Source of the DNA: Prorocentrum cordatum
Lineage: Eukaryota
Reading direction: 5' to 3'
Length of the DNA stretch: 64,000 nucleotides
Assembly: GCA_963575745.1 (NCBI GenBank)
Contig: CAUYUJ010000325.1
Location: forward strand, 62,001 to 126,000
How positions within the stretch are numbered: the stretch's first letter is position 1; every line of letters begins with the position of its first letter. The notes under the pieces were generated by a model, which searched no databases, had not been told where the DNA came from, and saw only the letters and a list, made by a program, of their open reading frames with translations. Positions 25,301 to 53,067 of this stretch are shown piece after piece. The position numbers and the translations under genes are program-made.

Positions 25301-26599
25301 GACGTGCTGCGGTGCGTTGGAGAGCGCGTCGCGCGAGCAGTTGCGCTCCAGGGAGAGCAAGGGGCATCCAGAAGCAGGGCGCCCAGAAGCGGGGTCCTCC
25401 CTCATCCAGCACGCCGATTATTAGCTCCATGGGGGGGGGCTACAGTAGCGTTGAAAAAATTGCACTGGTCAAATAAAGTGGACGCACAAACAGGTTCGAG
25501 ACTCACGGTCTCCCTTGCCATAACGGCAAGACAACCACGAATGGACAAATCGCATCACATCCGAGCTTGTTATATACTGCTGTACAATCACGCACGATAC
25601 CGTTCACAAACAACCTCCATTCCCCCACTCCTCTGTCGCCCTCCTGACCAGCCGATGTGCAGCCCTTCGGCTACAGTTTCATCGATCTGGCCACTCGCCG
25701 CTCATGGGCAAAGCTGGCCTCCCTACGTTCACATCATGCCGGACCATTTCTTCGATGGTCACGGGCAGCCTAAGAGTTCTGCGCAACGGCAAGATGAACC
25801 TGAGAGCACTTCAGTCCAGTCAATACAGCCGCGACCGAAAATAAGGACACCCGAGAGGACGCACATGTCTACCAAGGGCGACATGCCACGAACAAACGGG
25901 AAAACACACGGCACGACACGCAGAAGATTGAGAGGACAACCGTGAGGGCGCCTTCGCTTGTGCAGGGCCGACAGCTCCACCCATCGGTCACCACTGTGCC
26001 GCCGAGAGCCTGAACGGAACGCAAACCAAGTCGTGTTTGTGCTCGTTTCTTACAAAGAGGCCAGGGTGTCCGACGTCCACGAGGGGGGGTTGCAACTCAT
26101 GGCCCGAGGTATGTGCGCGGCGCAGGTGGAGCCAGGGGATATATTGAAAGAATAAGGGACGCCATGAAATCCTGGGAGACTATCCCTGGCCATGATATGA
26201 ACCCCCTGGCTTGTCATCACCCCCCTCTCTGCCGCCCCCTAGAAGCAGCGCCCTTGGGGCGCAACACCATGAGGCCAGAGAGCAAAACCCGCCGCTGTGC
26301 TCTCGGCACGCTGGAGGGTGCCAGACTAGGGGAACAAAACAGTACCCGTTCCTCTACTCCACGAGCGAACCCCCCTCCCTGGAGATCACCGCCCTCCGAC
26401 GGACTAGGGCCGCGACCCCCCGAGGTGGGCCAGGGCCTCCCCGAGACGGCCGCAGGGCGCGCACGTCGATAGGTTGGCGGCGCACATAGGGGGGGGGGAG
26501 GGGGAGGGGGGGAAAGCTTCTTAGAGGGAGGCTGCTTCTTAGAAGGCGCCGGCCTTGCGGGTGGCCGAATAAGGGCAAATAGCCCAGGGGCGGGCATTA

Positions 26600-29500
26600 C
26601 ACGTATTCGCACGAGAGCCTCGACGAAGACATGGATCGTCGGCGCCCCTGGATACATGTGTTGCTCCCCCCTTCGCTGTTTGCCTCAATCGTCGCCTCCG
26701 GCACCAGGGCCAGCACCAAGACGGCCCCGCGTCCCCCCTGCGAGACTCCAAGATGATCCCAAGTCTGATGGGTGGCCCTGGACTTCTGGGCTTTCGGTCC
26801 CAAAAAGCCCCACTCAGTTTCCCAATGTCGGCGGCCCGACCACTTCGAATCGGCTCCAGTACAGTCGATCCGCTTCGAAAGCGCCTGCAGGCCTCGCTCA
26901 AACGCTGTACGGTACGTAGTTCTTCGCCAATGAAGGCCGAGCAGATGCGCCGTACGATTCCCAGGTCGGGGATCGACGACGCCTCGATGGACGCCAACGC
27001 GGTACGGTGCACCCAGGTCGTCCAGGGATCCTAGACGAGCCCACGACATCCCGGGAGGCCTCCGAGTCCCCGGGGGGTCTGCAGGGAGGCCTCCAGCGAG
27101 GCCCAGGGCGGCCAAGGCAAGACAGCTACGGACGTTCTGTGCACGTGCTTCTTCAGACACTGCGGGGAGGCTTCAGAAGGCTCCGACCGTCGGAGGTCCG
27201 AGCGGATTTTCTCGGATCGGCGTCTGGGCGTCGCTGCCAGCGGGGCCCAGGCGCCGATCCGAGAAATCCGAGCAGACCTCCGAAAGCTTATGTTTATACC
27301 GCTTTCCTCCTTCGACAGCCACAACACGGCACCAAGACGGTCACAACAAGGCACCAAGACAGCCCTCCCCAAAGAAAACAAGACGGCCCGCCTCGAGAAG
27401 ACTGCCCCGAGATCCGCCGAGAAGACCCCGGCCCTGAGATGCTTCGACCGAGTTGTTTCGGGAGAGCGGGGGGGAACACTCGCGCCCAAATCCCAAGACG
27501 GCCCCGAGATCCTCAAGAGGCTCCCAAGGGATCCCTAAAATAATCACTAGGCACTGGGGCATAAACATAAAAGTTCCAGGGTCCGCGTGGATTGCCGGAT
27601 CTGCGCTGAATCCCCCTCCCCGGCGCGCGGAGTGCGCCAGGGGCGGCGCCCGAGGCGCCGCCAGAGGGGGGCCCAGCGCTGATCAAAGAAATCCGCGCGG
27701 AACCCCGAAAGCTTACTTTTGGTATTCCTTACTTGATCCATGCAACACCCACCAAGGATGCCTCCATGCGAAGCGATGCGATGCGACCACCGTTGCGGAC
27801 AGCGTCCGGGCCTAGAGCAGACCAGGTGGGTGAGGCCATGGCCTCTAGGATCTGATGTGTCAGGACTCATGCAGTGCGAGACATGCTAGAAATTAGAAGG
27901 AAAGGGGGAGGAGGAGGAAACAACAAGTCCTTGGTGTCGGTGTCGGCGCGGGTTGGGCGAGACGTCTCGACGTTCGCAAAGATTCTACGTCATTGGTCTG
28001 AGTCCCAAGTGCTGGTCGACATGAGGTCGGTGAAGTGGTGCTCGAGCGCTGTCCATGCTTCGGTGTCCTGGGCTGTTTGCGTCCATGTGGGCGAGCAACG
28101 ACATATGTACATGTACGCCCTCCGCGGTCTTGCCTGCACGAACGTCCGCGTTGACACGCACTCCGGGGGAAACTAACCGCGTACGTGTACATATGTTGCT
28201 GGCCTCTGACCATGTGATGTCGTTCGGTTGTCCTTTCGAATGGAATTGCGTGGGCGGTCGGTGGAAGTCTGGTCTGCGTTGACGCAAGTAGGTCGTACCA
28301 GCTCTTGTTTTGGCCACCGTGTTGCCTGTGTCCCCGCTGGCGCGGGTTGAAGACTGGGTGCCAACGCAGCACTCGCCATGTCCACCTCGTCCAGCCGTGG
28401 TTTGCGACTCGTGAAGCCATGCGCCAGACTTTCCCTTTGTGCAGCGTCTCCCAGGTGTCAATGTGGTGGAACTTCATGAGGTGCCCTGCGCGTCGTGTCG
28501 CTCGTTGGGTGTAGTCGACCCATGGTTCCATTTCGTCTGCGGTGGTGCTGTCTTCGCCGTCTTCGCTGTGCTTGTCGGGCGTGTCAGGTGCATCACACTG
28601 TGATGGGTTGCTGTCTGCGTCGTCGCTAATGCTGTTGGCGCGGTCTTCGTGGTTTTGTGCTTCGTTGTTCGCGCCGTCGATCTGGACGCCCGACATGGGT
28701 ACGGAGAGAATGGGTACAATGCCCAACAGCAGTTCCTGTTCATTTGAACAGGACTCGCTGTCCGCGCCGCCGCAGCCTGTGTCCATTCGAAACAGAAGGC
28801 TGCCTGCCAAACAGCGGCCGCTGTTGGTTTGGGGCAACATTTGTTGTTGGGCATTGTACCCATTCTTTCGGTACCCATTCCGGGCGTCCAAAGTCGAGAC
28901 CAGGTCCCTGGCCGTCGTGAGGGTCGTTTTTTTTTGTTGTGCGTCTCCGCGGCGTTCTGATGATCATGCGAAGCATGCGTCGTTGTGTCCGTCGTAGATG
29001 CTGCCGTAGAGACTCCGTGAGGGTCCACGTCTCTGCTCCGTATAACGCTGTAGGTGCTACAGTGCTGTTGAAAAGTCGACGTCGGTGAGCCAGTGGGTAG
29101 CGTTTGCTGGTCAGCTCCTGCTTGCGAGACGCGAATGATGCCCAGGCACCTCGCGCGCGGTGGTGGGTTTTCGATTTCATCGGTTCGTGGAAGCTGATCA
29201 AGTGGCCGAGGTATTTTATACTGCCCTCGTATGGAACGATGTCTACATCAATGTCTTGGAAACGTGCTGTGCGTGAGCTCGCCCTTCCGGTCCTTCTCGT
29301 CTGGTTGCTCAATATTTTGGTTTTGCTTGAGTGTAGTTCGAGCCCGCGTAGCCTCGTCGCGCGCGCAATGTCGTCAAGCATCGCTGTCAGGCGCGGGGGA
29401 GTTTGGCTGGTCAGGAGCACGTCGTCGGCGAAGCGCAGGTTGGTCAGCGCGGCGGTGCTCGCGGATCCCAATTCAACTCCCTTCCTTTTTTGCTGATGTT

Positions 29501-32500
29501 CGGAAACCAGCGGTCCAAGGATGTACGGTAGAAGAGCTTTGAAGAGTAGGGGGCTGCGTGGGTCTCCCTGCTTCGTGCCCCGCAGGAGGCTAAAGGGTCT
29601 GCTGCAGACGTCTGTCCTCACCGTGGTTCTGTCCCTCAAAGAGCTGTTGGAGTAGTGCAACGTATCGAGGTTGGACCCCTTGTGCCTTCAGCACTGCCCA
29701 TATGCTCTTGTGCTCAACTGAATCGAGAGTTTTTTTGAAGTCGAGTGCTGCGACCCAGAGGTTTTGGCCCCATTCGCTTGCGCGCTCGCGCAATAAATGG
29801 AAAGTAAAGAGGTGGTCAGTGGTCGAATGGCCCGGCCTGAAGCCCGCCTGTTCGGCAGTCTGGTGTGAGCCAAGCGTCGGTTGTAGCCTGTTGTACAGTA
29901 GTCGGCTGACTAGCTTGCACTACAATGGTATCGTGCAAATGGGGCGGTACTTTTGAACAACGCGAGATTATCACTTTTTGGTACGACTGTGATGACTGTG
30001 CTCTTCCAGCAGGCTGGCGGCGGGGCTTCGCGCTGCAGGATCGTGTTGTAGAGGGGGAGAAGTGCACCTCTGAGTTCATCTGTGCCTTCTTTGAGCATCT
30101 CTGCGAGGAGGCCTTTCGTGTCTGGGGCTTTACCAAGCCGGAGACCTTTGATCGCCTTGTTTGGCTCTTTCGGTGTCATGGGTGGGAGTCGGTGAGTCTG
30201 CTGGTCGCTGTCAGTCGTAGGTCTGCCAAGTCTGTTGGCCGGCGGGAGGGGGTCGGTCTGCTGGTCTGCTGGTCGGTGTTTGCTGCTTTGCCGGTCTGCT
30301 GGTCGGTCTGCTGGTCGGTCAGCGGGGTCGTCGTTTGGTCGTTGTGGGAGTCGGTGGGTCTGCTGGTCGGTCGGTGGCAGTCGGTCTGCCGGTCTGCTAG
30401 TCGGCGGTCGGTCTGCTAATATACTGGTTGGTCGGCCGGCGCGGCGTTCGGCCTGTTGGTTTGCCGGTCTGCTGGTCGGTCTGCTGGCTGGTGTGCTGGC
30501 CAGTGGTCGGTGGGGTCATCGTTCGGTCGTTGTGGGAGTCGGTGGGTCTGCTGGCCGATCGGTGGTAGTCGGTTTGCTGGTCTGCTAGTCGGCGGTCGGT
30601 GGTCGGTCTGCTGGTCTGCTGGTTGGTCGGCCGGCGCGGCGTTCGGCCTGTTGGTTTGCCGGTCTGCTGGTCGGTCTGCTGGTCGGTCAGCGGGGTCGTC
30701 GTTTGGTCGTTGTGGGAGTCGGTGGGTCTGCTGGTCGGTCGGTGGTAGTCGGTCTGCTGTGAGCTGTGAGCTGCGGGGCCTCTAAAGGCTGGAAACAAGG
30801 TGGGCCCGAGGCTCTCTCTCTCAGGAGCCTCCAGGGCCAGCAGGAGGGGGCCGCTTCGGGCCGCCCTCCCCGAGGGGCCGCTTCGGGCCAACCTCCAGCA
30901 CACCCTCACGAGGGGCCGCGTCGGGCCTCTCCGAGGGCAGGCCGCCAGGGCCAACGGGGGCGCCTAGGCCCCAGGGCCACGAGGGCGGGCAGTGCCGAGA
31001 GGCATGCAGAAGCAGCGAAGCTGCACCGATTGCTAGCTCACGTACACATTCAAATACAAGAAATGCGAATGCACGGAGCAAACGGAATTAGCGTCCGCAC
31101 GCAAGGCGAACCGTCCTGCCCCTGGGCCTCGGCAAGGACGAGGAGCCTCTCAAGCGAAAGCGAGGGCCCGTGAGCAACACAGGCGATCGATGCTAACGAG
31201 AGGTCGTCCAAAAAGGCCCAGAGACCGCGAACGGGCTCGTCCACGCCGCCAGCTCCGCCTCCGCGCGGGGGGGCCTCCTCCGACTCCTCCTCGAAGGCCG
31301 TGCCGATGACGACTGGACGCAGGTCGAAGCGGACGCGACGGGCGCGCCGCCCCATGCTTGCACCTCGCCTCCTGCGGACGCGGCTGCCCTCGAAACCAGC
31401 GCCAGGACCAGTACCGCCAGCCACAGGAGCCGCGAGGGCCCCGCCGCCTCCCGAGAGGAGCGCCGCAGGGTGAGCGCGCAGGTACGCCAGAACCGAAGTG
31501 CTGGCCTGTGGCGCCGCCTCCGACACCGAGCAGGTCGTATCCACTTCAGCGTCGGCAGCACCCACCTCCTGATAGTCGAACTCGGCCGAGTCGGCCGCAC
31601 TGCCAGCAGTGCCTCCAGGGCCGAACACGTCAAAGGCATTCATACAGACATCGGCACGCTCAGGCCGAATAGACCCAGGTAGACCATGCAGAGAAGTCGG
31701 ATCCACAGCAGATCCCTTCGGAAGGGCGTCTGCAGGGGCAGGAAAGGACCGATACCGCCGAAGACGATGGCGATGCTCGTCCGCACCCGGCTCATATACG
31801 GCTTGCTCGGCATGGTAGTCCACAGACGCGCCAGCTGCTAGGTGTGCATGCTGTACTTCACACCCAGGTGGGCCTTCAGCAAACTCTGCTTCAGGTTGAA
31901 CAGCTTCAGCACGAGGTGCCTGGGCAGTCAGATGACCGAGCTCGCGAAGCAGGATCTCCGCCTGTTCGCCCTCAAAGGTCGGCATGAACTGCTCGAAAAG
32001 GTCCGAGCCCTGTGGAACGAAAACCGGGGCCTCAGGATTCCAAGCGAAGCCCTCTTGCCTACACTCCAGTCGCGGCCCCTTCTGGAGGCTCTTGAGAGCA
32101 TGCACTCCTGCGCTGGCGATGCTTACACCAGAAGCGTCGGAGTGCAACGCCACGTTCCTCCTGAGGACGCTGACGTGGCTTGGGAGGCGTCCACGCAGCA
32201 AATCCTGGAGTGCTGGCGCCAGTGCCAACAGGCGGTCGGCCAGCTCCGCATCGCCGCCGGCCAGCGCGCCCACGAAGTCGAGCAACTGCATGTGCTGTTC
32301 CCTGATACGACCAAGCTCCTCCGATAGCTTGGAGACCGCTCTATCCGCTGAGCGAATGGCCCAGAGCCGTGCGGCCTTGCGATCTTGTGCCGTTCTCCTC
32401 GGCGCGCATTCCGCGCCGTCCCGTATCGCCATTCCGCGCCCGAGCAAGCATGCTAGATCGCGAACTGACTTGAGCCAAAATGGCTACGGGAGTCGGTCTG

Positions 32501-35500: not shown

Positions 35501-36990
35501 TGCTGCTGGTCGGTCGGGATCGTTTTTGCTCTGTGGAAGATGCATGCTGGTACGTCGCCGTCTGTTCGTGCATAAGCCTTTCTTCCGCCTCCAGTGCTCC
35601 GCGCTGACGTCGGTGAAGCGGTTGGTCGCGATGTCGGCGTCGAGGCTGCAAGTCCTGAGGGGGCGGTTCCTGAAGACGGGCAACAAATTACACTGCCGTA
35701 TTGGTCTCGCATCGAATTCTGGAAGACACGGGTATTCTCAGCGGGAGGCGGAGGGAGGTAGGGGAGAGGAAAATTCGAATACCCGAGTGTGTTGACAAAA
35801 ACCTCCAAAACTTTCAGGGCCAAGGAAGCCTCCAAGAAGCCTCCAAGGGGCAACGCAACAATCGTGCAATGGACTTCTGGCAGCACAAAGAGCAGGAAAT
35901 GCACAGGAGGCGCAGCGGGTCGGGTAGGCAGGGTCGGGGGGTCCTTCAGAAAGCAGGAGGGGACACGTTGTTTCACGGGCGCTCGTTGACCCGCGAGAAT
36001 GAAAAGATGCAGCCTGGACAGGGGTGAGAGCACGGCCATGCGCACCTTCAAATATGTTTGTCAACGAGGCCCTCAACACCGAAGATGTAGTCGGTAGCGA
36101 GAACACGATTCCTGAATACAGTGTGGAGCAGTCTCAGGCGAAACCGCCGCCTGACCGACGCTGTCGACCTGGCGATCTCGAGCTCCCCGTCCCCACTGTG
36201 GGATTTCTGTTGTCCCTTTTTACTTCCATGAGAAACCTCTAGGGCAAAACTGCCCAGCGGCTTCCAGCTACCCCGAGGAGGTATCCGTCGACTTCAGCAT
36301 GCTGGGGGGAGAAAGCGTGTGAAATGATGAGGAGGACGGGGGGGGAGTCAGGGAGCGGCGCCAGAGCTCCTCAACGCACCTCCCTGGCCCTCGAAGCCTC
36401 TCCAGGACGGTGCAAGAACGGCTCCAATGCGCCCCAGGAGCCTCAAGACGATTCTAGATGGCCGCAAGACAGTTCGAGAAGCTCCCAAGACGCCCGAAGA
36501 GGGCTCCAAGAGGACACCCAAGACCAATGATTTTCTAAAATGTTGATTCAAAACAATAAAACTTGTGCGCTCGCAGTGTTGGCCTAAACGCGCCCCACAC
36601 CATCCCAAGATGGACCAAGAGACCCGGAAAGGGACCCGGAGACGGCCCAAGAAGGGCCCCCAAACCGCCCGAGGGACCCCGAAGACGGCCCAAGAAGTGC
36701 CCAAGAGGGCCCCGACCCGAGGGGGGTAACTCGAAGGGGCTCGGGGGAGCCTCGCCCCCTCCAAGATGGCCTCTAACATGCCCCCGAAGGAGCCCCCAAG
36801 AGGCCGCCAGGCGGCCCCACGGCGCTCCCGGGAGGCCTCACACGGCCCCCTCGGACCTCCAAACGGTCTCCAAGAGGCGCCGCAACACATCCCGGGCGAC
36901 TTCCAAAAAGCCTCGTCGTCCTGCACCTTCTCACCTTTTGAAATCCAGTTCCACAAGAAACGAAGCCGCTGCATCCCCTGAATCACTGTT
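26600..36990 (-). CDS. Multi-exon host gene of unknown product (partial model; ends uncertain)
   Basis: Phase-compatible exons 27811-27762, 27159-27091 and 27030 to about 26845, joined by GC-AG introns, give PDAVRNGGRIASLRME|CLKKHVHRTSVAVLPWPPWASLE|DPWTTWVHRTALASIEASSIPDLGIVRRICSAF. Candidate upstream exons at 35944-36130 and about 36900-36990. Confidence 0.4.
27170..27320. mobile_element. Degenerate copy of the GATTTCT/AGAAATC hairpin MITE family
   Basis: GGATTTTCTCGGATCGGCG...CGCCGATCCGAGAAATCC...CTCCTTCGA. Confidence 0.65.
27545..27740. mobile_element. Degenerate copy of the same hairpin MITE family
   Basis: GGCATAAACAT..GGTCCGCGTGGATT...GATCAAAGAAATCCGCGCGGAACC. Confidence 0.65.
28681..28892. 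mobile_element. 212-bp MITE inserted in the LINE
   Basis: TIRs of about 45 bp: TGGACGCCCG..ATGGGTAC.GA.AGAATGGGTACAATGCCCAACA and its inverse. GTCGA duplicated at 28676-28680 and 28893-28897. Confidence 0.85.
31050..32432 (-). CDS. Intronless 460-aa hypothetical protein with an N-terminal helical region and a PAM2-like motif
   Basis: Uninterrupted ORF starting 36 nt after the SL; WNPEAPVFVP at 32013-32042 resembles the PAM2 consensus LNxxAxEFxP. Confidence 0.7.
   Translation of the reverse strand: MAIRDGAECAPRRTAQDRKAARLWAIRSADRAVSKLSEELGRIREQHMQLLDFVGALAGGDAELADRLLALAPALQDLLRGRLPSHVSVLRRNVALHSDASGVSIASAGVHALKSLQKGPRLECRQEGFAWNPEAPVFVPQGSDLFEQFMPTFEGEQAEILLRELGHLTAQAPRAEAVQPEAEFAEGPPGCEVQHAHLAAGASVDYHAEQAVYEPGADEHRHRLRRYRSFPAPADALPKGSAVDPTSLHGLPGSIRPERADVCMNAFDVFGPGGTAGSAADSAEFDYQEVGAADAEVDTTCSVSEAAPQASTSVLAYLRAHPAALLSGGGGALAAPVAGGTGPGAGFEGSRVRRRRGASMGRRARRVRFDLRPVVIGTAFEEESEEAPPRGGGAGGVDEPVRGLWAFLDDLSLASIACVAHGPSLSLERLLVLAEAQGQDGSPCVRTLIPFAPCIRISCI
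32469..32489 (-). other. Genomic copy (relic) of the dinoflagellate spliced leader
   Basis: Exact CCGTAGCCATTTTGGCTCAAG. Confidence 0.97.
36370..36900. repeat. CCCAAGAGG/CCTCTTGGG-rich dispersed repeat (related copies near 7200-7320, 10800-11950, 27320-27540, 49050-49550)
   Basis: Shared GGCCCCAAGA/CTCCAAGAGG motifs. Confidence 0.7.
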
Positions 36991-37132
36991 ACCCTGGGGG
37001 TCGGCAGAATGACGTTGGCCTAGCGAATAACCATGCTGCGTGAATTTCTATGCTGCATCCACACTGTGGCGGGGTTCGCCGCAGGCAGCTGGATAGAAAA
37101 AAGTAGCATGCGGCATGCGTACAGAGGATGCG

Positions 37133-39050
37133 TCAGGCCTTGCCCAGGATTCTCAATGCGTGCTGCTGCTGTCCAGCGGACCAGAAGCTGCCACCCGCAA
37201 CCTTCTGAGAAGGCCCACGCGGTGGAGATCCGTCACCACCTGCTACCTCTGGAGCAGCACTCTTCCTCTCCATCACGTACTGGGCCCACTCCACCTCCAT
37301 CACGTTGGTCTCCCCGGTGTCCAGATTGTGGACCGTGAACGGCAAGACGTTACCATGGATGGAAGAAGAACGCGCGGCATAGACATGAACTGTCGGACCT
37401 CCGCGCGAAACTCTCGGGTCTGAGCCAGACCCACATCCCTATCGCGAGGAGCGCGCTGGGGGCGGCGCCGTTGGGGGCCCTCGGCGCAGATTCGAGAAAT
37501 CCGCGGGGACCTCCGAAAAATGATGCTCATGCCGCCTTCTCTCCTCCCGACATGGGGTGCACTCTTCTCGTGGCCAGGTCTGAACGCCTGCGGCATGACC
37601 ACGTCGGCGCCGCCCTCGCCCTCGAGCCGGCACCGCTCCAGCACGGGGTCGGCCCGACCGCGCACGTGCCAGCTCGCCTGGCCCGTGTTCAGGTCCTTCT
37701 CGACCACAAGCTCCGTCTCGTCGGGACAGCCCGAGGCGAAGGCGGCCTCCAGGTCGGACAACATCCTTCGAGGAAGGACAAGAGTGCATACATATAAACT
37801 GTCGGAATTCCGCTGGGATTTCTTGGATCGGCGCTCGCCCGCCTGGCGGCGCCTCCGGCGCGGCCCCTGGCGCGCCGCGCGCCAGGGAAGGGGGTCCAGT
37901 GCCAATCCGAGAAATCCTCGCGGAGCTCTGAACATGATGTCTTCGTATGTGATGTGTCTTACTTCGAATCCTGTGGGTGACCTGAAAGTCTGATGCAGCG
38001 TCGAGCAACCTTTCGGCATCCCACTTCCGCGTGCGCGTGAAGCGCTTCAGGAACGTCAGCACCTCGCAGCCATCGAAAGCCAGGAGGGAGTCCTGAACTT
38101 CGTAGAGCAAAGCAAGGCCAACCTGCGCAATCACCTCCCAGCCCACTAGGAGGAAGCGGTCCCAGATGCGGCGAACCAAGGGCTGCGCGAGGTCACTCGC
38201 GAAGAGGGTCAAAAACCACTGCACCGCGTAGTATTCGGAAGTGATGCCATGTCTCTGCAGCCCACCATGTACACCCGGAAGAAAGCATTCCACCAAACGA
38301 TCAAACTGCCAAGTGGTAACGCCAAGCTTGGGGAAGCGCGGCCTGTAGAAGTCGGCCAGCGAGTATCGAAAGAGCAGCGCCTGCGCGCAGTGGAAGACCA
38401 GAGCCTCGTCGTCAGGGAACACACAGATGAGGGTCGCGATGACGAAATTGAGACTCTGTACATAGCCGATGTCACAGAGCTGCACCGCCAGCGCGTGGAG
38501 GACCCGGAAAAGAGCTCCTTGGCCCCTGCCGGCCTTGTCCCGGAAGAGAGCCTCCTGCGGCAACGTCCGCCCCAGGTCGCGCCGGATCACGTCGTCGTAC
38601 GAGGACGGTGCCAGGCCCAGGCTGTGGTACGAGTCCTGCACGGCCTCGGACTGCATGTTTGAAGGAACAAAGAGCGGCAGAAGCATAACTTCTCTGAGGT
38701 CCGAGCAGATTTCTTGGATCGGCGCTGGGCCCCTCCCAGGCGCGCGGAGCGCGCCAGGGGCGGCGACCGAGGCGCCGCCAGGGGGGGCCCAACTCCGATC
38801 CGACGAGAGGTCCGCGCGGGCCTCCAAGAGATCATGTTTATGCCGTTGTTGGTTCCTCGGATGCTCAGGCCATCCATGAAGACCGCCTTCCACGCCCGCG
38901 CCCGCTGCGACGGGTCCAGGTCGGTCTGCCACATCGCCGCCGACTCCGCCTGGCGCTCCCACAGCTGCCTCCACGCGCGGCTCGCGCAAGCGGCCTCGTG
39001 CCAGGACGGCGGCGCAAGCCACAGCCTCAAGTGCCCAGCTGCTACCGATG
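37133..39050 (-). CDS. Rab GTPase-activating protein (TBC domain) with a possible F-box-like N-terminus; exons approximately 39050-38861, 38654-37971, 37765-37551, 37353-37133; 5' exon not resolved
   Basis: RARAWKAVF, VIRRDLGRTLP (IxxDxxRT Arg finger), IGYVQSLNFV (YxQ Gln finger), QWFLTLF, RRIWDRFLLVGW. No stops in the exons once the MITEs are removed. Confidence 0.9.
37359..37550. mobile_element. Hairpin MITE/introner copy 1 in the TBC gene
   Basis: Imperfect TIRs. CATGG duplicated at 37354-37358 and 37551-37555. Removal joins SAPH|GNVLPFTVHNLDTGE. Confidence 0.8.
37768..37967. mobile_element. Hairpin MITE/introner copy 2, equivalent to GA-AG intron 37766-37970
   Basis: TCGA...TCGA termini. 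ATCCT duplicated at 37763-37767 and 37968-37972. Removal joins FQVTHR|MLSDLEAA. Confidence 0.9.
38660..38860. mobile_element. Hairpin MITE/introner copy 3 in the TBC gene
   Basis: Imperfect TIRs. ATGTT/ATGCT flanks (4/5 match). Removal joins FMDGLS|MQSEAVQD. Confidence 0.8.
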
Positions 39051-39212
39051 GTTGCAGAAGAAAAAACAGCATAAGCATCAACGCTCCAGAGCGGGCGCGG
39101 ACCTCCTGGATCAGCGCCTGGACCCCCCCCCAAGCGCGCGGAGCGCGCCATCAACCGCACCCGAGGCGCAGCCAGCGCCGATCCGAGAAATCCGCGCGGA
39201 GCTACGGACACG
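39051..39212. mobile_element. Hairpin MITE copy 4, one arm truncated by the adjacent repeat
   Basis: CAGCATAAGCATC..GGATCAGCGC...GCGCCGATCCGAGAAATCCGCGCGGAGCT. Confidence 0.7.
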
Positions 39213-39214
39213 AG

Positions 39215-39880
39215 TTTGGGGGAATCTACTGACCCAGGTCACTGCAGAACCCGGGTAAGTCAGGCTTCGCAGGATCCTGCACCCAAGCCTGGGTCAGTGC
39301 AGTCCTGGCTCTGCCTGTTTGCATTGACCCCCGTCTCTTGAGCCCCGATATGTGAGTGCCGATTTTCCTTCTTCGAGATGGTTCGGCTACACGCAATGGG
39401 TGACCCCAGGCAAGAGGAGCCTCTGGTGCGCGACTCTCGGTGGGGGGGGCGCGCGGAGGCCAAGCCCGAGCGCGGGAGCTGCTGCTGCCCCATTGCATTC
39501 AGCCACCTGGGGCCCCCAAATTCAAATGTGCCTCGAAGATCCACTGACCTGGGTCCAAGCCCGGGTCAACCTGGCCTTGGATCCTGCAAACTCCAGCGCT
39601 CTGGCTGACCCCCGTTTGCACTGACCCCGTCCCAAGACATACGAGTGCCCGCAGCGGAGGTCACTCCGGCGAAAAGTCACTCTTGCGTGTAGCCGAGTGC
39701 CCCTAGGCAAGAGTGACCTTAGCGAAGAGTGACCTCAGTGCGCGGCCAAGGGCGGACCCTTCGGGGACACCACCAGGCGCGCAAGCCGCTACTACCATCG
39801 CATTCAGCCACCTGGGGCCCCCGAGTGCGCCCGCAGCAAAAGTCACTCCGGGGAAAAGTCAATCGTTACGTGTAGCCGAA
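39215..39880. repeat. Composite repeat with internal direct and inverted segments
   Basis: GCATTCAGCCACCTGGGGCCCC twice; GTTTGCA.TGACCCC twice; TCGGCTACACG inverted against CGTGTAGCCGA (twice). Confidence 0.65.
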
Positions 39881-41824
39881 TGGCGTGCGGCTCCAGGGAG
39901 CCACCTCCAGGCTGGCCGGCCTCGAACTCGCCGCGGCCGCTCCTCCTGCGCTCACCATGTGCGGGCGTCGAGCGCCGATCCCTCGCCGCCGCGCCGCCGG
40001 AGCCGAGGGCACCAGTGACGACGAGTACGTCGCCAGGGAGGCCTGGGAGGCAGGAGCTGCCTCGAAGAAGATGATGGCGCGCCAGAGCGCGGGGGGGAGC
40101 ATCGGGAGAGGGGATGATATGCCTTTTGCAATCCCAGCCTTCTTCCTCGTTCTCGGACTCTGGGGCCAGAGACTGGGCCCCGGGGCCACCGGACATGGAT
40201 CTGGGGCGAAGAGCTACCCCATGGGGAAGGGGTCGGGCCCTCTGGGGCCGCGCATGGGAACAATCACAACGCCGGGCATCTGGGTGTGCATCACCACGAG
40301 GCATCCCCAGAGATCCAACGGCGTCGAAGAGTTCCAGCATCGCCACAGGTCACGGCCGTGGCAGACCCCTGCCGGGTCGACCTGCGAGTGCCCTGGGGCC
40401 AAAGACAGGGCGGAAACGCCCAAAATGAAAGAATGGCCGCGCACGGAGGGCCCAGCTTGTAGGGCACGGGCCAGAGCGCGTTGTCGGTTCCCCCGGCCAG
40501 GCCAGCGAATGGCACATTTACATCGTGCCAGGGCCTCGCCCCGGAGTAGCCCCGTGGATGCCTGCCAGGTGGTGCACGAGCGCAGGAAAGCGAAGGGATG
40601 ACGATGAGAAAAATACGGTGAGAGCATTGGATCGGGAACCAATCCATACGGGATCCAGGGTCTGGAAGCCAGTGCAACCCCAACCGTGGACTGGCCATGG
40701 GTATCACTGCCGTCCTCATCAGGTAAGGAGTCCTCCAAGATCTGAAGCATCCTGGGCATATTTCTTAATCACTGCCCCCACCGTATTGTTCTGCCGCTGC
40801 GAATTGTTGTGGGAAAGAACGACCAAAAAATCTCAATGACGACGAACTCGACGACGACGACGACGACGGCGTGGAACCCAATGTATGAAACATTGCCCAG
40901 CGCGCTGCTGCGTGACGGGCCAACCTGGGCAGCTCTTTTGGAGGCCTCCCCAACTGGAATCCGCGTAGATGAGGTCGGAGGATCGCGCCACATCGCCGAT
41001 GCAGCGCCAATGCATCGGCGAGGTCGGCGATGCATCGGCGCCGTCGGCGTGGAGGAAATCGGGCCCCACATCGAGCCGAATCGCCGATGCATCGGCGATG
41101 CGGCGCGATCCTCCGATCCCATTACTCGGACCCCATGTGGAAGGGTTGGATCTGAATCGTCATCCCACATTGGAAGCGTCTGAGGGGTCTGAACTGGTTG
41201 GGACCCTCCAAATTTTGTCGGGAGGAGGACGACGCCAACTCTGTTCAAAATCGGTCCCTGGACCCCTCCTCCCGGAGTCCAGTTGGTGCAGTTCTGTCAC
41301 CCAAGATCCGTTTGTTTTTATGGCCCAAAGGCCCGAAGACGGCCCCAAGAGGCCGAAAAAGCAAACAAACAAAAAAAAAAAACCTTCCCGAACCCAGATT
41401 CTCGAACCGGCCCGCCCTTCCTACTGGCTGGAATCAATGCTGGGCAACCTCAGAGCCCCAGACGGCTCGAAATCCCGCATTGATCTCCCTCTCCCGGGAA
41501 GACCCGCGGCGGCACCGAGGGGGGCGGGGGGGGCGCGGGCGGCGCTCGGGCCGAAACGTGGCGATGGGCTGCTCGGCGGCGCACGCGCCCTTCGGGCAAC
41601 GACCTCGCGCCCGCAGGCAGGCAGCAGGAGAATGACGAGATGGAATGAGGGGCAAGGATACGGCAAATTCGTGTCGTGTCGACTTCGGCGGTTTCTGACA
41701 CCGTGGGGATCGTTCAACCCTGAACGATCGGCCGGTTTCGAGAAGTCAGACCGTTCAACGTCGCCCGATTCTGGGTCGCTCGCGGCGTTCAAAGGGCCGG
41801 GCAGTGCTACACGCCCCGGGCGGA

Positions 41825-42337
41825 GCTTAGCTTAGCTTAGCTTCAGCTTAGCTGCGCGTAGCTGTAGCTTAGCTTAGTTGTATCATATGATGTCATATCG
41901 TAGCCCAGCATCGCATATCATAGCGCAGCATATCATGGCATGGCATATCATAGCATAGCGCAACATAGCACATTATATCATAGCATCGCGCTGCATATCA
42001 TAGCGTACCATAGCCTTGCATAACATAGCGCAACCTAGCGTAGCTTAGCATCGCGCACTATAGCATAGCATAGCATAGCATAGCATAGTGCAACATAGCA
42101 TAGCATAGCAGAGCAAAGCAGCAAAGCAAAGGCAAATCAACAGCAAAGCACAAGCAACGCAAAGCAAACAAAGGCAAAAGAAAGAGCACAGCAAAGGAAA
42201 GGCAAATCAAAAACAATGTGGTGACGATGAAGATGGTGATGGTGCTGGTGATGATGCTGATGATGACGATGATGGTGACGATGGTGATGGTGCTGGTGAT
42301 GATGCTGGTGATGATGATGATGATGATGCTGATGATT
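41825..42337. repeat. Compound microsatellite (AGCTT)n-(AGCAT)n-(AGCAA)n-(GAT)n
   Basis: Directly visible. Confidence 0.9.
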
Positions 42338-44376: not shown

Positions 44377-44418
44377 ATGATGATGGTGCTGTTGCTGATG
44401 ATGATGATGATGCTCAAA

Positions 44419-44489
<71 letters not shown>

Positions 44490-45680
44490 AATGATGATGA
44501 TGATGCTGATGATGGCTATGATGATGATGGTGCTGGTGATTATGAATATGCTGCTTGCAATTGGTGGTGGTGCTGGTAATGGTGCTAATGATGATGATTA
44601 CGATGATGCTACTGCTGACGATGATGGTGGTGCTGACGGTGATGCGGGCCAATATGATGGCGATGGTGATTGTGATGATGATGACGATGATGATGATGAT
44701 GATGAAAATGATGATGAACATGATGATGATGATGATGATGATGATGATGCTGATGCTGATGAGTGTGCCGATGATGCTGCGCAAATCATGACGATGCTGA
44801 TGAAAATCATGTTTATGATGGTGGTGATGATGATGAAGCTGGTAATGGTGATGGTGATGATGACGCGGGTGATCTGAAGGTGTCACAATGTTGGCGATAT
44901 CCATAATGGGAAAGATGGTGATGATGGTGACGGTGATGAAAGCGACGACGACGATGACGGCGACGACGATGCGGATGCTGATGCTGATGATGGTGTTGAC
45001 GCCGATGCTGATGATGATGTTGCTGATGATAAAGGAGGTCGTGTAATGGTGTAGTGGTGATGGTGATGAGAACGCGCATGCGGGCGATGCGGATGACGAT
45101 GTTGTTGCTGACGATGATGATGATGCGGATGCTGATGATGATAGTAATGATGATGCTGATGCTGAGTATACGGATGATGCTGATGATACGTATGATGACA
45201 ATGTTGTGAACTGGTGGTGATGACGATAATGATGCTGTCGATGGGATGGTGATGGGGATGGTGATGTTGGTGGTGATGATGACGATGGTGATGGTACTGA
45301 CGATGATGATGACGGTGATGATTTTTGTGATGATGCTGCTGCTGATGATGATGATGACGGCGATGATGATGGCAATGCAGATGATGGTGATTATGATGAT
45401 GATGATGCTGGATATGGTGGTGGTGATGATGCGGGTGATGATGGTGATGAGGATGGTTGCGACGAAGAAATTTAAGACAAGGGAAATAGTATACCGTTAT
45501 GGTGATGCTGATCTGAGAATTATGATGATGGTGAATATGATGATGACAGCGACGAAGACGATGACGGCGACAACGATGATGATGCGGATGATGATGCGAA
45601 TGATGATGCTGATATTGATGTTGATGCTGATGCTGCTGATGATGAAGGTGGTGGTGTGATGGGGATGGGGATGGCGATGA
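44377..45680. repeat. Degenerate (GAT)n low-complexity tract
   Basis: Directly visible; source of the poly-M/D/H/I pseudo-ORFs. Confidence 0.95.
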
Positions 45681-50249: not shown

Positions 50250-51870
50250 TTCAGTTCGTGTCGTCCGCGCTTTGATGGTTGACGGCGCATCGCAAACGCT
50301 TGTCCTCTAAGCCCTGCCAGGTGTAGCTATCGTGCGCCAGCGCAAACCACCATTCGCAGCCAGTATCATCGGGGAGTCTCTTGTTGTTGTCAATCATATC
50401 CGAGGTGCCCAAAAATGTGACGACCTCGTTGTCCCAACGCTTCCTCGGTCCGCCTTGTTTTCGTTGTGCGGGTCTTCTGTCGCGCAGAGGAGGCCGCCGA
50501 GCGGCGGCGGGAAAATTGGCAACCCGCTTGGCCCATCTCCACTTTGCATTAAAGTCGTGCGAAGCCCAATCCTCGACTTTCGCGCGTCTGGCATGGGCAT
50601 CGGCTGTGTGCGTCGCTCGTCGGATGAAGTCCACCCATGGCTCTAATCCGTCGTTGCTGTTGGTGTCGCCGTCGTTGCTGCTGGTATAGCCGTCGTCGTC
50701 GTCGTCGTCGCTGTCGCTGCTTTTACTGCTTCCGTCGTTGCCAAAGTCGTCGTTCTCAGTGCTGTCGTCATTGTCTGGGTTGCTTTCGGCGAAGTCTCCG
50801 TCAAGCTCTGCGCACTATGCTCCATCTCCCTCCTCCAGTTGGCCGCTGCTAAGTTGGAGGTCTTTCTCATCGTCGTTCCAATGATTCCCTCGCGCGCCTC
50901 GTCTGCCAATCCCCACGATGATTCGGACCACCTTCCGCTGCGCACGCTGTAGTAATGTAAGCGCGTCTTTGGTTAGAGCCCACGAGCTGCATCCGTACAT
51001 GACACTGGGCGTTACGGTCCCACTGAAGAGGCATAGGCGACTTGCGCGAGGGTAGCGTTTGCATGTCAATTCGTGTCTCAAATGGTTGAATCGGCGTCAA
51101 CCCGACGCGATTCTGGCGTCGAGCTCCGCGATGTGGAATTCATGGTGTGTAAGATCCCTGCCCAATTACTTCGTGCTCCGCGTTGCGCCCACAATCTCGA
51201 CGCTATCACCTTCGATGTTATGGAATGGCCTTGGTAGGTCTGCCTTGTCGCTGGGTGACGTTGGACCGTACTTTCGTCTTGTCTGGGTTTAACTCGAGGC
51301 CGCATTGAGGTCGCGCAGTGAGAATTTCAGTTGACGCAAATTTGGCGCACACAAAATAAAACGTCGTCTGCAAAACGGAAGTTGGTGAGGAGGGTGTCTG
51401 CGGTGAAACCCATATGTATGCCAAGCTGTTTGTTGCGCCATGTGTCCTTCATGCGTCGGAATTTGCTTGTAAGTAGTGCGCTGGAAAATAGGGAGCTCAG
51501 TGGGTCTCCTGGTTTCACACCTCGCTGGATGTTGAAGTGTCTGCTCGTGCTGTCCGTCCGTACTGTAGCGGTCTGGTCGGTGTAGAATTGTTTGAGGAGG
51601 TGTATGTAGGATGCCGGCGCCTGCTGCTCTCTGAGTGAGTCCCATAGTGTGTTGTGGTTGACACAGTCGAATGCTTTCTTAAAGTTAACCGCCGCTACCC
51701 AGAGTGGTACATGCCATTCTTCAAACTGGTTGTGCAGGAGAGCCGGCGTTGTGAATAAGTGGTCGTCGGTGCTGTAGCCGTGTCTGAAGCCTGCTTGGTC
51801 TACGCTTTGTTGCTTGTCTAACAGTGGACCCAATCGCTTGTACAGGAGTCGAGACATAAGCTTGTCCAGG
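50250..51870 (-). mobile_element. 5'-truncated, decayed RTE-like LINE (RT and C-terminus)
   Basis: QAGFRHGYSTDDHLF, VNFKKAFDCVNH, RGVKPGDPLS, NFRFADDV, VMYGCSSW, KWRWAKRVA; frameshifted. Confidence 0.92.
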
Positions 51871-53067
51871 GGCCTCCCGGGGCAACCCGTGGACGCAGGG
51901 AGGCCCCAGGGGCGGGAGAAACCACTTGGTTTACACTGGGTTCCGCAGGTGTGCTGCAACCCCCTCGGGGCCCCGAGGCCCCCCAGGGCTGGGTTCGTGG
52001 TATATGAGATGCGAGGCGATTTTCATCGCTAGAGTCGGACCTGGGACAGAATAATACCCTCAGCTGGCCAAGCTAAATGATACACGAGGGCACCCTCCCC
52101 CAGGATGCACAAAAACATCCAACGAACACGAAAAACTTGGGGCATCCTCCCCGAAGCTGCCTCGATCTTGCGCTTCGCACCGACCGTACTATAGACTTTA
52201 TGTATAAACCCTTAGGTTGCAGGATGATGCTGATCATGACTGGTGGCTCCAGTGCAGCAATCAGAGCAGGGCAGGTTCACGTCCCTGTGCCGTGGGCGTT
52301 GGTCCCTGACACCACGTGGACAGCTCAACCTTGAAAGATCGACGCTCTCATACAGCAGAGGTCGTTGACCACGGGTCTAGCTCGCACAGCTCGGGGAGGC
52401 ACACCTTGAAGGCCCACGCTGTTGTCGCCGCCGCGCCAACGCGGCGCGAACCTGCTGTACAGGCAATGTGTGCCAATAAGAGAACCAATCAAAGTGGAGG
52501 ATGACACATTCTTTGGTAGCAATTCTTCAAACACGATGCGCCCGAACGCCCCGGGCAACCTCATATCACTTGATGAGCGGGTTCGCGAAGAGAAGCACCT
52601 GAGAAACTTTCCCTGCGCCCACTTGACCGATTACCCATCCTCCTGCTTCTGTTCCTGCAACTGCTCCTGCCCCTGCTCCTGATCCGCCTCCTGCTTCTCC
52701 TCCTCCTTCTCCACCCACCCATATCCTCCTCCTCCACCTCCTCCTCCTCCTCCTCCTCCGCCTCCTCCTCATACTACCCTCATCCTCCTCCCCCTCCTCC
52801 GACTCCTCCTACCTCCTCGATGGAGGTCAACTTCTTTTCAAGAGGGGTCTCGCTCGAAACTTCCGCTGGCCTGGCGACGAAAACCTGAAATTGTGCAACC
52901 CTTGCACGGATGGAGGGTGAACCCTGTACAAACGGGGTCTCGCCTGAACGGCACGCCCACCAGGCCGTTCGTCATTCAAGGGGGCGCTTCCCACGGTGGG
53001 GAGAGGAGGGGGGTCCCGGGAAAAAACCGGGGAAGTCCCGGGTCAGATGCGCCTCCCCACCCAAGCG

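Follow-up and report, generated by a model that had tools for sequence, protein, structure and literature searches.

A TBC/RabGAP gene of a core dinoflagellate whose introns are probably hairpin transposon insertions excised at their direct repeats

The described introns that come closest to those reported here are the introner elements of Amoebophrya A25 and A120, which were validated genome-wide by RNA-seq and carry inverted repeats of 8-20 nt, direct repeats of 3-5 nt over their borders and a hairpin that joins the exons, with a length of ~240 nt in A120 (Farhat et al. 2021, PMC7789003; this and the other papers are cited from the parts of their text available to us). A spliceosome that accepts any terminal dinucleotide at ends that are already paired was proposed there. 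In the part that we cite, a 2024 review attributes 'other boundaries', up to 67%, to Amoebophrya alone (PMC11453091), and the sole figure we found for a core dinoflagellate is the 9.32% of 'other' splice sites in Fugacium kawagutii (PMC7789003, Table 1). For Prorocentrum cordatum, inverted repeats of 8-20 nt together with direct repeats of 3-5 nt were counted in 2.4% of introns (Dougan et al. 2023, PMC10666404); the gene models of that study used GT, GC and GA donors only, its accessible text does not mention splicing without AG, and introns like those described below would escape such models. Our search of the literature accessible to us, which did not extend to the journal version of Roy et al., found no published repeat-delimited hairpin introns without AG in Prorocentrum or other core dinoflagellates. 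Here we analyse a stretch of 64,000 nt deposited under P. cordatum (assembly GCA_963575745.1, contig CAUYUJ010000325.1, positions 62,001 to 126,000; hereafter the window), in which a TBC/RabGAP gene on the minus strand is interrupted by hairpin-forming elements, among them copies of a family of miniature inverted-repeat transposable elements (MITEs). The mature RNA lacks each element together with one copy of a direct repeat of 3-5 nt. Hairpin transposon insertions probably make up all the introns of this gene and are removed at their repeats, the hairpin setting the place of excision.

We placed the RNA contigs of four runs from four studies (X1, X9, X11 and X15, of which X9 and X11 are recorded as polyA RNA) on positions 36300-41800 without any constraint on splice motifs. 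The observations rest on the contig pieces listed, beside which there are 289 further ones. At the scale of the window, 19 of the 24 listed public runs contain part of it; in those called RNA, a fraction of ~0.36-0.57 of its sampled words occurs, about what the exons would account for. The contigs join 37353 to 37551 (197 nt skipped, three runs of four), 37762 to 37968 (205 nt, all four), 38654 to 38861 (206 nt, all four) and 39047 to 39880 (832 nt, three of four). Another joint, from 40100 to 41499 (1,398 nt skipped), occurs in one run of four and has 28 nt on its short side. These joints can slide by 5, 5, 3, 4 and 1 nt, respectively; the first four slides equal the direct repeats in length, and those joints lie exactly at the repeats. 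A single X1 contig of 1,633 nt contains four joints and has no mismatch to the exons and untranslated regions (UTRs) of the window. The first-pass annotation of this DNA, made from its letters alone, had proposed a precise non-canonical removal of the elements and had set motif-free mapping of RNA beforehand as the test that could refute it. Transcripts are present, and their junctions fall at the direct repeats.

Joined at these positions, the exons form an open coding sequence of 1,386 nt (461 amino acids) that runs from the ATG at 39958 to the stop at 37133, the frame being read on the spliced sequence. Exon 1 (39880..40100) holds the 5' UTR and the start codon (39958-39956) and is placed by contig pieces in all four runs and by the frame. 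Exon 2 (38861..39047) is placed by pieces in all four runs and by colinearity with orthologues, exon 4 (37551..37762) by contig pieces and by its HR|MLS junction, which is kept in orthologues, and exon 5 (37026..37353) by contig pieces; exon 3 lies at 37968..38654. Exon 5 codes for a conserved C-terminus (LPF.VHNLDTGET and GSFW...LGKA), followed by the stop codon (37135-37133) and a 3' UTR whose contigs end at 37026/37027 (X1 and X9), 37007 (X11) and 36933 (X15). All these exons are on the minus strand, as is a possible first 5'-UTR exon (41499..41526) that is weakly indicated by a single X15 contig, in which its 28 nt are followed by Illumina adapter letters. The gene therefore reaches upstream to at least 40100, past the end that the first-pass annotation had given it. 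As predicted there from removed lengths of 205, 197 and 206 nt, taking out the element plus one repeat at each site restores a single open coding sequence. The C-terminal exons can be read only after 197 and 205 nt are removed; neither length is a multiple of 3.

The product is conserved. Exon 3 exceeds the cut-off of the Pfam RabGAP-TBC model (PF00566, E = 1.7e-40), and its translation contains IRRDLGR (IxxDxxR) and YVQ (YxQ), which we take to be the arginine and glutamine fingers of TBC domains; the exons thus keep the domain and its finger motifs, as had been claimed. Exon 3 is 81% identical to a P. cordatum protein, 90% to a metatranscriptome protein and 63-66% to proteins of Polarella, Effrenium, Durusdinium and Symbiodinium, and no protein in the collection searched matches it at 100%. 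The spliced protein of 461 residues aligns colinearly with 12 plus 5 dinoflagellate homologues, transcript- and genome-derived, over all junctions. In the alignment across junctions that the first-pass annotation had called for, no residue is added or lost at either junction 2 or junction 3. The GC content is ~62% over the window and ~61-64% in the 36-40 kb region, close to the 59.7% of the P. cordatum genome (PMC10666404). In summary, the gene is intact and expressed, and its host is a core dinoflagellate of high GC content, either P. cordatum itself or perhaps a sister species. The closest P. cordatum homologue (P0067), which would be a paralogue if the host were P. cordatum, lacks 23 residues of the alignment, including the arginine-finger motif, and starts at an internal Met; to judge from its sequence, it is possibly a model forced onto canonical splice sites around a putative non-canonical intron.

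The depth of the RNA contigs bears on whether the introns exist in the RNA itself. The bin 37404-37587 has, in all four runs, the depth expected from its 37 exonic bases alone, so the interior of intron 1 (37404-37550) has zero cover in every run. At intron 4, an X15 contig of 169 nt (39033-39201, one mismatch) crosses the border with exon 2, and its depth is 43.6 versus 262.7 for the joined form. Since this contig crosses the border and the intergenic bins 36300-36851 have depth 0, the MITE-bearing locus is itself transcribed. The interior depth of introns 2 and 3 exceeds that of the exons, owing to contigs that continue into sequence unlike the window; it is uninformative on retention, because it derives from other copies of the MITE family.

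These data leave little room for two explanations that would move the introns out of the RNA of this locus. The first is that reverse transcriptase switched templates over the hairpin between the repeats, so that the 'introns' occur in cDNA only and the mRNA keeps the elements. The artefact is a documented type (PMC2923612) and the introns bear its classic signature, with a strong hairpin, direct repeats that are short and ends that are non-canonical; everything analysed here also passed through reverse transcription. Such an artefact is nevertheless expected as a minority form, whereas the joined form is the sole one over intron 1 and the major one at intron 4, and the joints are identical in four libraries of four studies. 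Retention would also shift the frame before the TBC domain, yet the conserved exons need the frame of precise removal; candidate intron 5 has an overlap of just 1 nt, and the ends of intron 4 are unpaired. We therefore consider template switching very improbable.

The second explanation is that the mRNA comes from a MITE-free paralogue or retrocopy, the locus in the window being silent or a pseudogene and the joints being empty target sites. Removal of an element with one repeat does give the exact pre-insertion sequence, genomes of such dinoflagellates are rich in duplicated genes (PMC10666404), and the joined form was compared in RNA contigs alone. This requires, however, that a transcript with no mismatch over 1,633 nt come from a copy from which the locus differs by at least six insertions totalling ~2.8 kb (MITE copies 1-4, a second element that we call X, and intron 5), plus an insert within copy 4. 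With pairwise identities of 72-87%, the MITE copies do not represent a fresh burst, the exons of the locus are intact over 461 codons, and the contig at the border of exon 2 and intron 4 records transcription of the MITE-bearing locus. A retrocopy would itself require prior splicing of the same type. We give this explanation very little weight too.

Two side observations concern the same contigs. At two positions a T of the window is read as C, namely at 38957 in both X9 and X11 and at 37679 in X9 alone, whereas X1 and X15 are identical to the window. On the mRNA strand both differences are A>G, in exons adjoining hairpin introns; strain variation is likelier than A-to-I editing, though the direction fits editing. 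In addition, one X15 contig leaves the 3' UTR of the TBC gene at 36933 and continues with 136 nt, of which the adjoining 30 nt match 25809-25838 exactly (the region is 25703-25838). The join would skip 11,094 nt with ends GA..TT and no direct repeat, and the ends of the skip are unpaired (-24.3 kcal/mol; 220 of 500 background values are as low). A canonical-looking AAAAG|GTGAGA sits 2 nt upstream of the break at 36933. We did not count this join as a sixth intron and leave it unexplained; a chimeric contig, read-through and a real long intron in the 3' UTR could each account for it.

The three short introns are complete copies of one MITE family. We built a profile from these copies and searched the window with nhmmer, and a separate repeat finding agreed with the outcome. 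The complete copies match at 37355-37552, 37763-37971 and 38655-38864, a fourth match (39049-39206) is the 3' part of copy 4, and two further copies lie outside the gene, a short one at 27189..27314 (E = 2.5e-17) and another at 27556..27741 (E = 1.4e-24), both listed without strand. The six copies in the window belong to a palindromic element of ~200 nt whose pairwise identities are 72-87%, taking the best over either orientation. Copies 1, 2 and 3 have minimum free energies of -100.5, -100.5 and -121.8 kcal/mol, with z scores of -3.7, -5.3 and -7.4 relative to 100 dinucleotide-shuffled sequences per copy. When five copies are aligned, among them the one at 27556..27741 and one from a metagenome, 80 consensus pairs result, of which 13 have changed on both sides. 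The element ends are TCGGGAGG, TCGAAG, CCGAGG and TCGGCTAC, and all copies have a pyrimidine-rich 3' end (TTCTTCTTCC, TCCTTCCTC, TTGTTCCTTC, TTTTCTTCTGC). On the gene strand the direct repeats are CCATG (197 nt removed), AGGAT (205 nt) and AGCAT/AACAT (206 nt). Both the diverged hairpin copies and these repeats, re-read here, are as the first-pass annotation had given them.

Outside the window, a scan of metagenome contigs with an 18-nt core motif gave 101 loci. Three of them match the family profile: L083 is a full copy with TACCC on both flanks, and L078 and L093 are partial copies. L008 is marginal to the profile and the rest are chance matches, a sample too small for statistics. Rfam gave no match in the window at its gathering threshold, and a window-wide scan for inverted repeats was dominated by low-complexity GGA/TCC tracts. 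At ~200 nt the elements are too short for a transposase open reading frame (ORF). We infer that they are non-autonomous DNA transposons with terminal inverted repeats and target-site duplications of 4-5 bp.

Since a direct repeat allows the same joint to be placed in several ways, we enumerated every boundary placement, or register, that the repeats allow, which gave 23 registers over five introns, all on the minus strand. Intron 1 is MITE copy 1 (37354..37550, 197 nt; repeat CCATG, slide and repeat both 5 nt; registers TC..TG, GT..AT, TG..CA, AT..CC, CA..TC and CC..AT). Intron 2 is MITE copy 2 (37763..37967, 205 nt; repeat AGGAT, again both 5 nt) and is the sole intron with a GA..AG register. 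Intron 3 is MITE copy 3 (38655..38860, 206 nt; AGCAT/AACAT, of which 3 nt are shared; registers CC..AT, TC..CA, AT..AC and CA..AA). Intron 4 (39048..39879, 832 nt; repeat CCAT, both 4 nt) has the registers TC..AT, TT..CA, AT..CC, CA..AC and CC..AA, and candidate intron 5 in the 5' UTR (40101..41498, 1,398 nt; overlap 1 nt) has CC..AT and TC..GA. Of the 23 registers, one shows the pattern G..AG, namely GA..AG in intron 2. For the copies of 197 and 206 nt, no register provides an AG acceptor, which agrees with the earlier claim that only copy 2 offers GA-AG, and three of the four well-supported introns (1, 3 and 4) have no G..AG at all. In canonical introners, such as those of Polarella, Symbiodinium, Micromonas and Aureococcus, the element ends, the target-site duplication or both supply GY(GH)-AG splice sites; by this definition intron 2 would qualify, and introns 1, 3, 4 and 5 would not.

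In 200,000 random pseudo-introns of the window, slides of at least 5, 4 and 3 nt arise by chance with frequencies of 0.012, 0.028 and 0.071. The repeats of 5, 5, 3 and 4 nt in introns 1-4 therefore have null probabilities of 0.012, 0.012, 0.071 and 0.028, and are not due to chance. With the whole repeat placed upstream, the end of the element forms the start of each intron (TCGG, TCGA, CCGA, TCGG and CCCGGG), four of the five introns end in AT, and the following exon base is G in four of five. We regard this as a weak common feature, perhaps only a preference of the target site.

Ordinary splicing was weighed against these registers in several forms. The U12 5' consensus RTATCCTY (taken from PMC5032977) matches none of the 23 registers, and we rejected intron 3 as a U12-type AT-AC intron, its AT..AC register beginning with ATCCGAGG, off the consensus. 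Nested canonical splicing of the stwintron kind was rejected on logical grounds, since even then G.. and ..G/AG would be required at the outer ends. More generally, the elements could be ordinary spliceosomal introns that use cryptic GT/GC/GA-AG sites in or near them. In-frame pairs of such sites do exist in the sequence, among them the GC at 37535 and the AG at 37390 that the first-pass annotation had offered as a fallback for copy 1, and the GA..AG register of intron 2 fits the AGGH target-site class of Polarella introners (10.1101/2020.10.14.339549). Neither that pair nor any other cryptic pair is among the joints listed in the four runs, however; the observed joints lie at the repeats, 22 of 23 registers lack G..AG, and neither at junction 2 nor at junction 3 do the orthologues carry additional residues. 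The RNA contig joints refute cryptic-site splicing for introns 1, 3 and 4, and as an account of the gene we regard it as having next to no chance of being right.

Intron 4 is composite. MITE copy 4 (39052..39376, minus strand), which the first-pass annotation had taken as truncated, turned out to be complete and split: its first ~40 nt, at 39376-39340, can be aligned with the 5' termini of copies 1-3, its 3' part lies beyond an unrelated insert of ~130 nt (about 39207-39339), and CCATC flanks the whole at 39377-39381 and 39047-39051. Directly upstream of it lies element X (39382..39879, minus strand), of a second hairpin family, with ends TCGGCTACACG..CGTGTAGCCGA(A), CCAT on both sides and an inverted repeat of 23 nt that is 83% complementary (39382-39404 / 39858-39880). 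We compared the duplex of the terminal 45 nt of each unit with that of 500 random pseudo-introns, a blunt test in a window that is GC-rich and repeat-rich, as intron 2 illustrates with a strong full fold despite poor ends. The outer ends of intron 4 are unpaired (-18.1 kcal/mol; 351 of 500 as low), and the ends of both its elements pair: -42.4 kcal/mol for element X (16 of 500) and -36.0 kcal/mol for copy 4 (46 of 500). Further inverted repeats lie within the insert of copy 4 and element X (39221-39238/39288-39305, 39231-39244/39542-39555 and 39291-39315/39603-39627), which suggests more nested small hairpin elements within the 832-nt intron.

Candidate intron 5 has inverted ends, CCCGGGAGAGGG and CCCTCTCCCGA, that resemble the ends of copy 1 and form a duplex of -41.7 kcal/mol (16 of 500 as low), which gives some independent support to a joint seen in one run only. 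The claim that all introns of the gene belong to one MITE family accordingly stands for introns 1-3, and does not extend to intron 4, which also holds element X, or to candidate intron 5, which is bounded by another element. A palindromic block inside candidate intron 5 (40969-41122; unit CGCCGATGCATCGGCG, 43-nt arms, 86% complementary) was also noted; its part at 41066-41122 is covered by RNA contigs in all four runs, probably from copies elsewhere.

Because the element is removed with one repeat copy, the mRNA equals the pre-insertion sequence. We propose that each element would fold in the pre-mRNA into a long hairpin that sets both exon ends side by side, that cutting and rejoining would be placed from the base of this hairpin and not by GY/AG dinucleotides, and that adjoining elements would be excised as individual units. 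Unit-by-unit removal would explain why the outer ends of the 832-nt intron are unpaired and both its sub-elements paired; its side-by-side elements offer a natural test of this idea. As for the machinery, an endonuclease with a ligase seems to us slightly less likely than a spliceosome for which the terminal dinucleotides do not matter once the ends are paired, and at intron 2 the AGGAT repeat would let an ordinary dinoflagellate spliceosome use GA-AG.

The removal could also be real at the RNA level and the hairpin irrelevant to it, with the spliceosome using internal signals, such as a pyrimidine-rich 3' end and a branch site, and the repeat being a leftover target-site duplication. The pyrimidine-rich 3' ends of all copies are in line with this, and the AT at the intron end and G at the next exon base, each in four of five, would serve as a weak common signal. 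However, the 5' inverted repeat is rich in purines and the pyrimidine tract is no more than its complement, intron 5 and element X are of other families and yet are removed at their own ends, and the composite intron of 832 nt is easier to explain element by element. We thus think it unlikely that the hairpin plays no part.

Several points weigh against excision placed by the hairpin, or against the joints on which it builds. All the RNA evidence consists of assembled, unstranded contigs that derive from reverse-transcribed material, only X9 and X11 are recorded as RNA, and the joints are known from RNA contigs alone, so that a MITE-free DNA copy, though improbable, might underlie them. Retention of introns 2 and 3 is not quantifiable from the pieces listed, as other copies dominate their interior bins. 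Intron 2 could be an ordinary GA-AG intron, and its terminal 45 nt pair poorly (-13.7 kcal/mol; 419 of 500 as low). Guidance by the hairpin is deduced from predicted folds, and a palindromic transposon would fold in this way regardless of any role in excision. Finally, the scope is one gene. With these points counted, transposon insertions removed at their repeats by hairpin-placed excision remain, in our view, the probable explanation.

A wider proposal is possible but, on present grounds, doubtful: that core dinoflagellates have a sequence-independent RNA excision acting from the hairpin base, which removes side-by-side or nested insertions singly and restores the pre-insertion mRNA. If this were true, palindromic insertions into coding exons would be nearly harmless, the excision route would either be older than the split between Amoebophrya and Prorocentrum or have spread along with the elements, and gene models of giant dinoflagellate genomes constrained to GY-AG would systematically miss one class of introns.

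Among 18 long ORFs of the window, Pfam identified two reverse-transcriptase fragments only (RVT_1), at 28743-29687 (E = 1.2e-11) and 51330-52022 (E = 3.3e-14), both on the minus strand, their sequences indicating retroelement remnants; these ORFs hence offered no second conserved gene on which hairpin insertions could be tested. Upstream of the TBC gene lie about 43 copies of (AGCAT)n at 41907-42120 and an imperfect tract of 1.1 kb with an ATG period at 44377-45455.

Among known systems, the nonconventional introns of euglenids, which belong to another supergroup, share variable borders and a stable structure that joins the junctions, and prefer a purine as the next exon base, here G in four of five introns (PMC12501133, PMC6221363). 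Unlike them, the introns of the window form a clear transposon family with target-site duplications, and none of the 23 registers follows the Euglena code N3-CDG ... CH'G-N5-6 | R given in those papers. Closer in taxonomy are the IRIB introns of Crypthecodinium cohnii, also a core dinoflagellate, in which a border repeat of 2-9 nt is kept once in the mRNA (Mendez et al. 2015, PMC5032977). As described there, the IRIB repeat always contains GG, with AGG always at the 5' site and often at the 3' site, and because the repeat holds AGG the splice site can be placed as U2-type. In contrast, the repeats CCATG, CAT and CCAT found here contain no AG.

The introners described from Polarella glacialis and from Symbiodiniaceae, likewise core dinoflagellates (Roy et al., 10.1101/2020.10.14.339549), resemble ours in being derived from DNA transposons, with inverted ends and target-site duplications of 3-8 nt, and in that the sequence is as before the insertion once they are removed. 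One class of Polarella introners, AGGH, takes both splice sites from the duplication, and the AGGAT of intron 2 fits it. In every class given in the accessible text the intron begins with GH and closes with AG, unlike introns 1, 3 and 4. Precise removal of introns that have neither GY nor AG at their ends calls into question the standard view of splice-site selection, and annotation pipelines limited to GT/GC/GA-AG will mis-model such genes, of which P0067 may be an example.

The likeness is greatest to Amoebophrya, to which the first-pass annotation had already compared the locus. The comparison holds for the architecture. As in the published part of that system that we cite (PMC7789003), the introns are supported by RNA and have neither GT-AG nor a fixed terminal dinucleotide, inverted repeats at both intron ends form a hairpin (in intron 4 per sub-element, not over the whole), direct repeats of 3-5 nt span the borders (here 5, 5, 3 and 4 nt, with 1 nt in the weak intron 5), and a MITE-like family without transposase is repeated. 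It does not hold for the host, which here is a core dinoflagellate, Prorocentrum-like, with a GC content of ~62% as compared with 47.8-55.9% in three Amoebophrya genomes and 44-49% in their introns (PMC7789003). The element ends also differ, being TCGR/CCGA and not the TAT of A120 or the TTA of A25 by the motifs described (PMC7789003), and one copy in the window offers GA..AG as well. Judged by their sequences, the elements appear to be of the same kind as the Amoebophrya introner elements and not of the same families. The same architecture, supported by RNA, in a core dinoflagellate of a bloom-forming type means that the mechanism may be broader or older than its description in Amoebophrya, and the excision machinery could now be sought in a host that is free-living and can be cultured.

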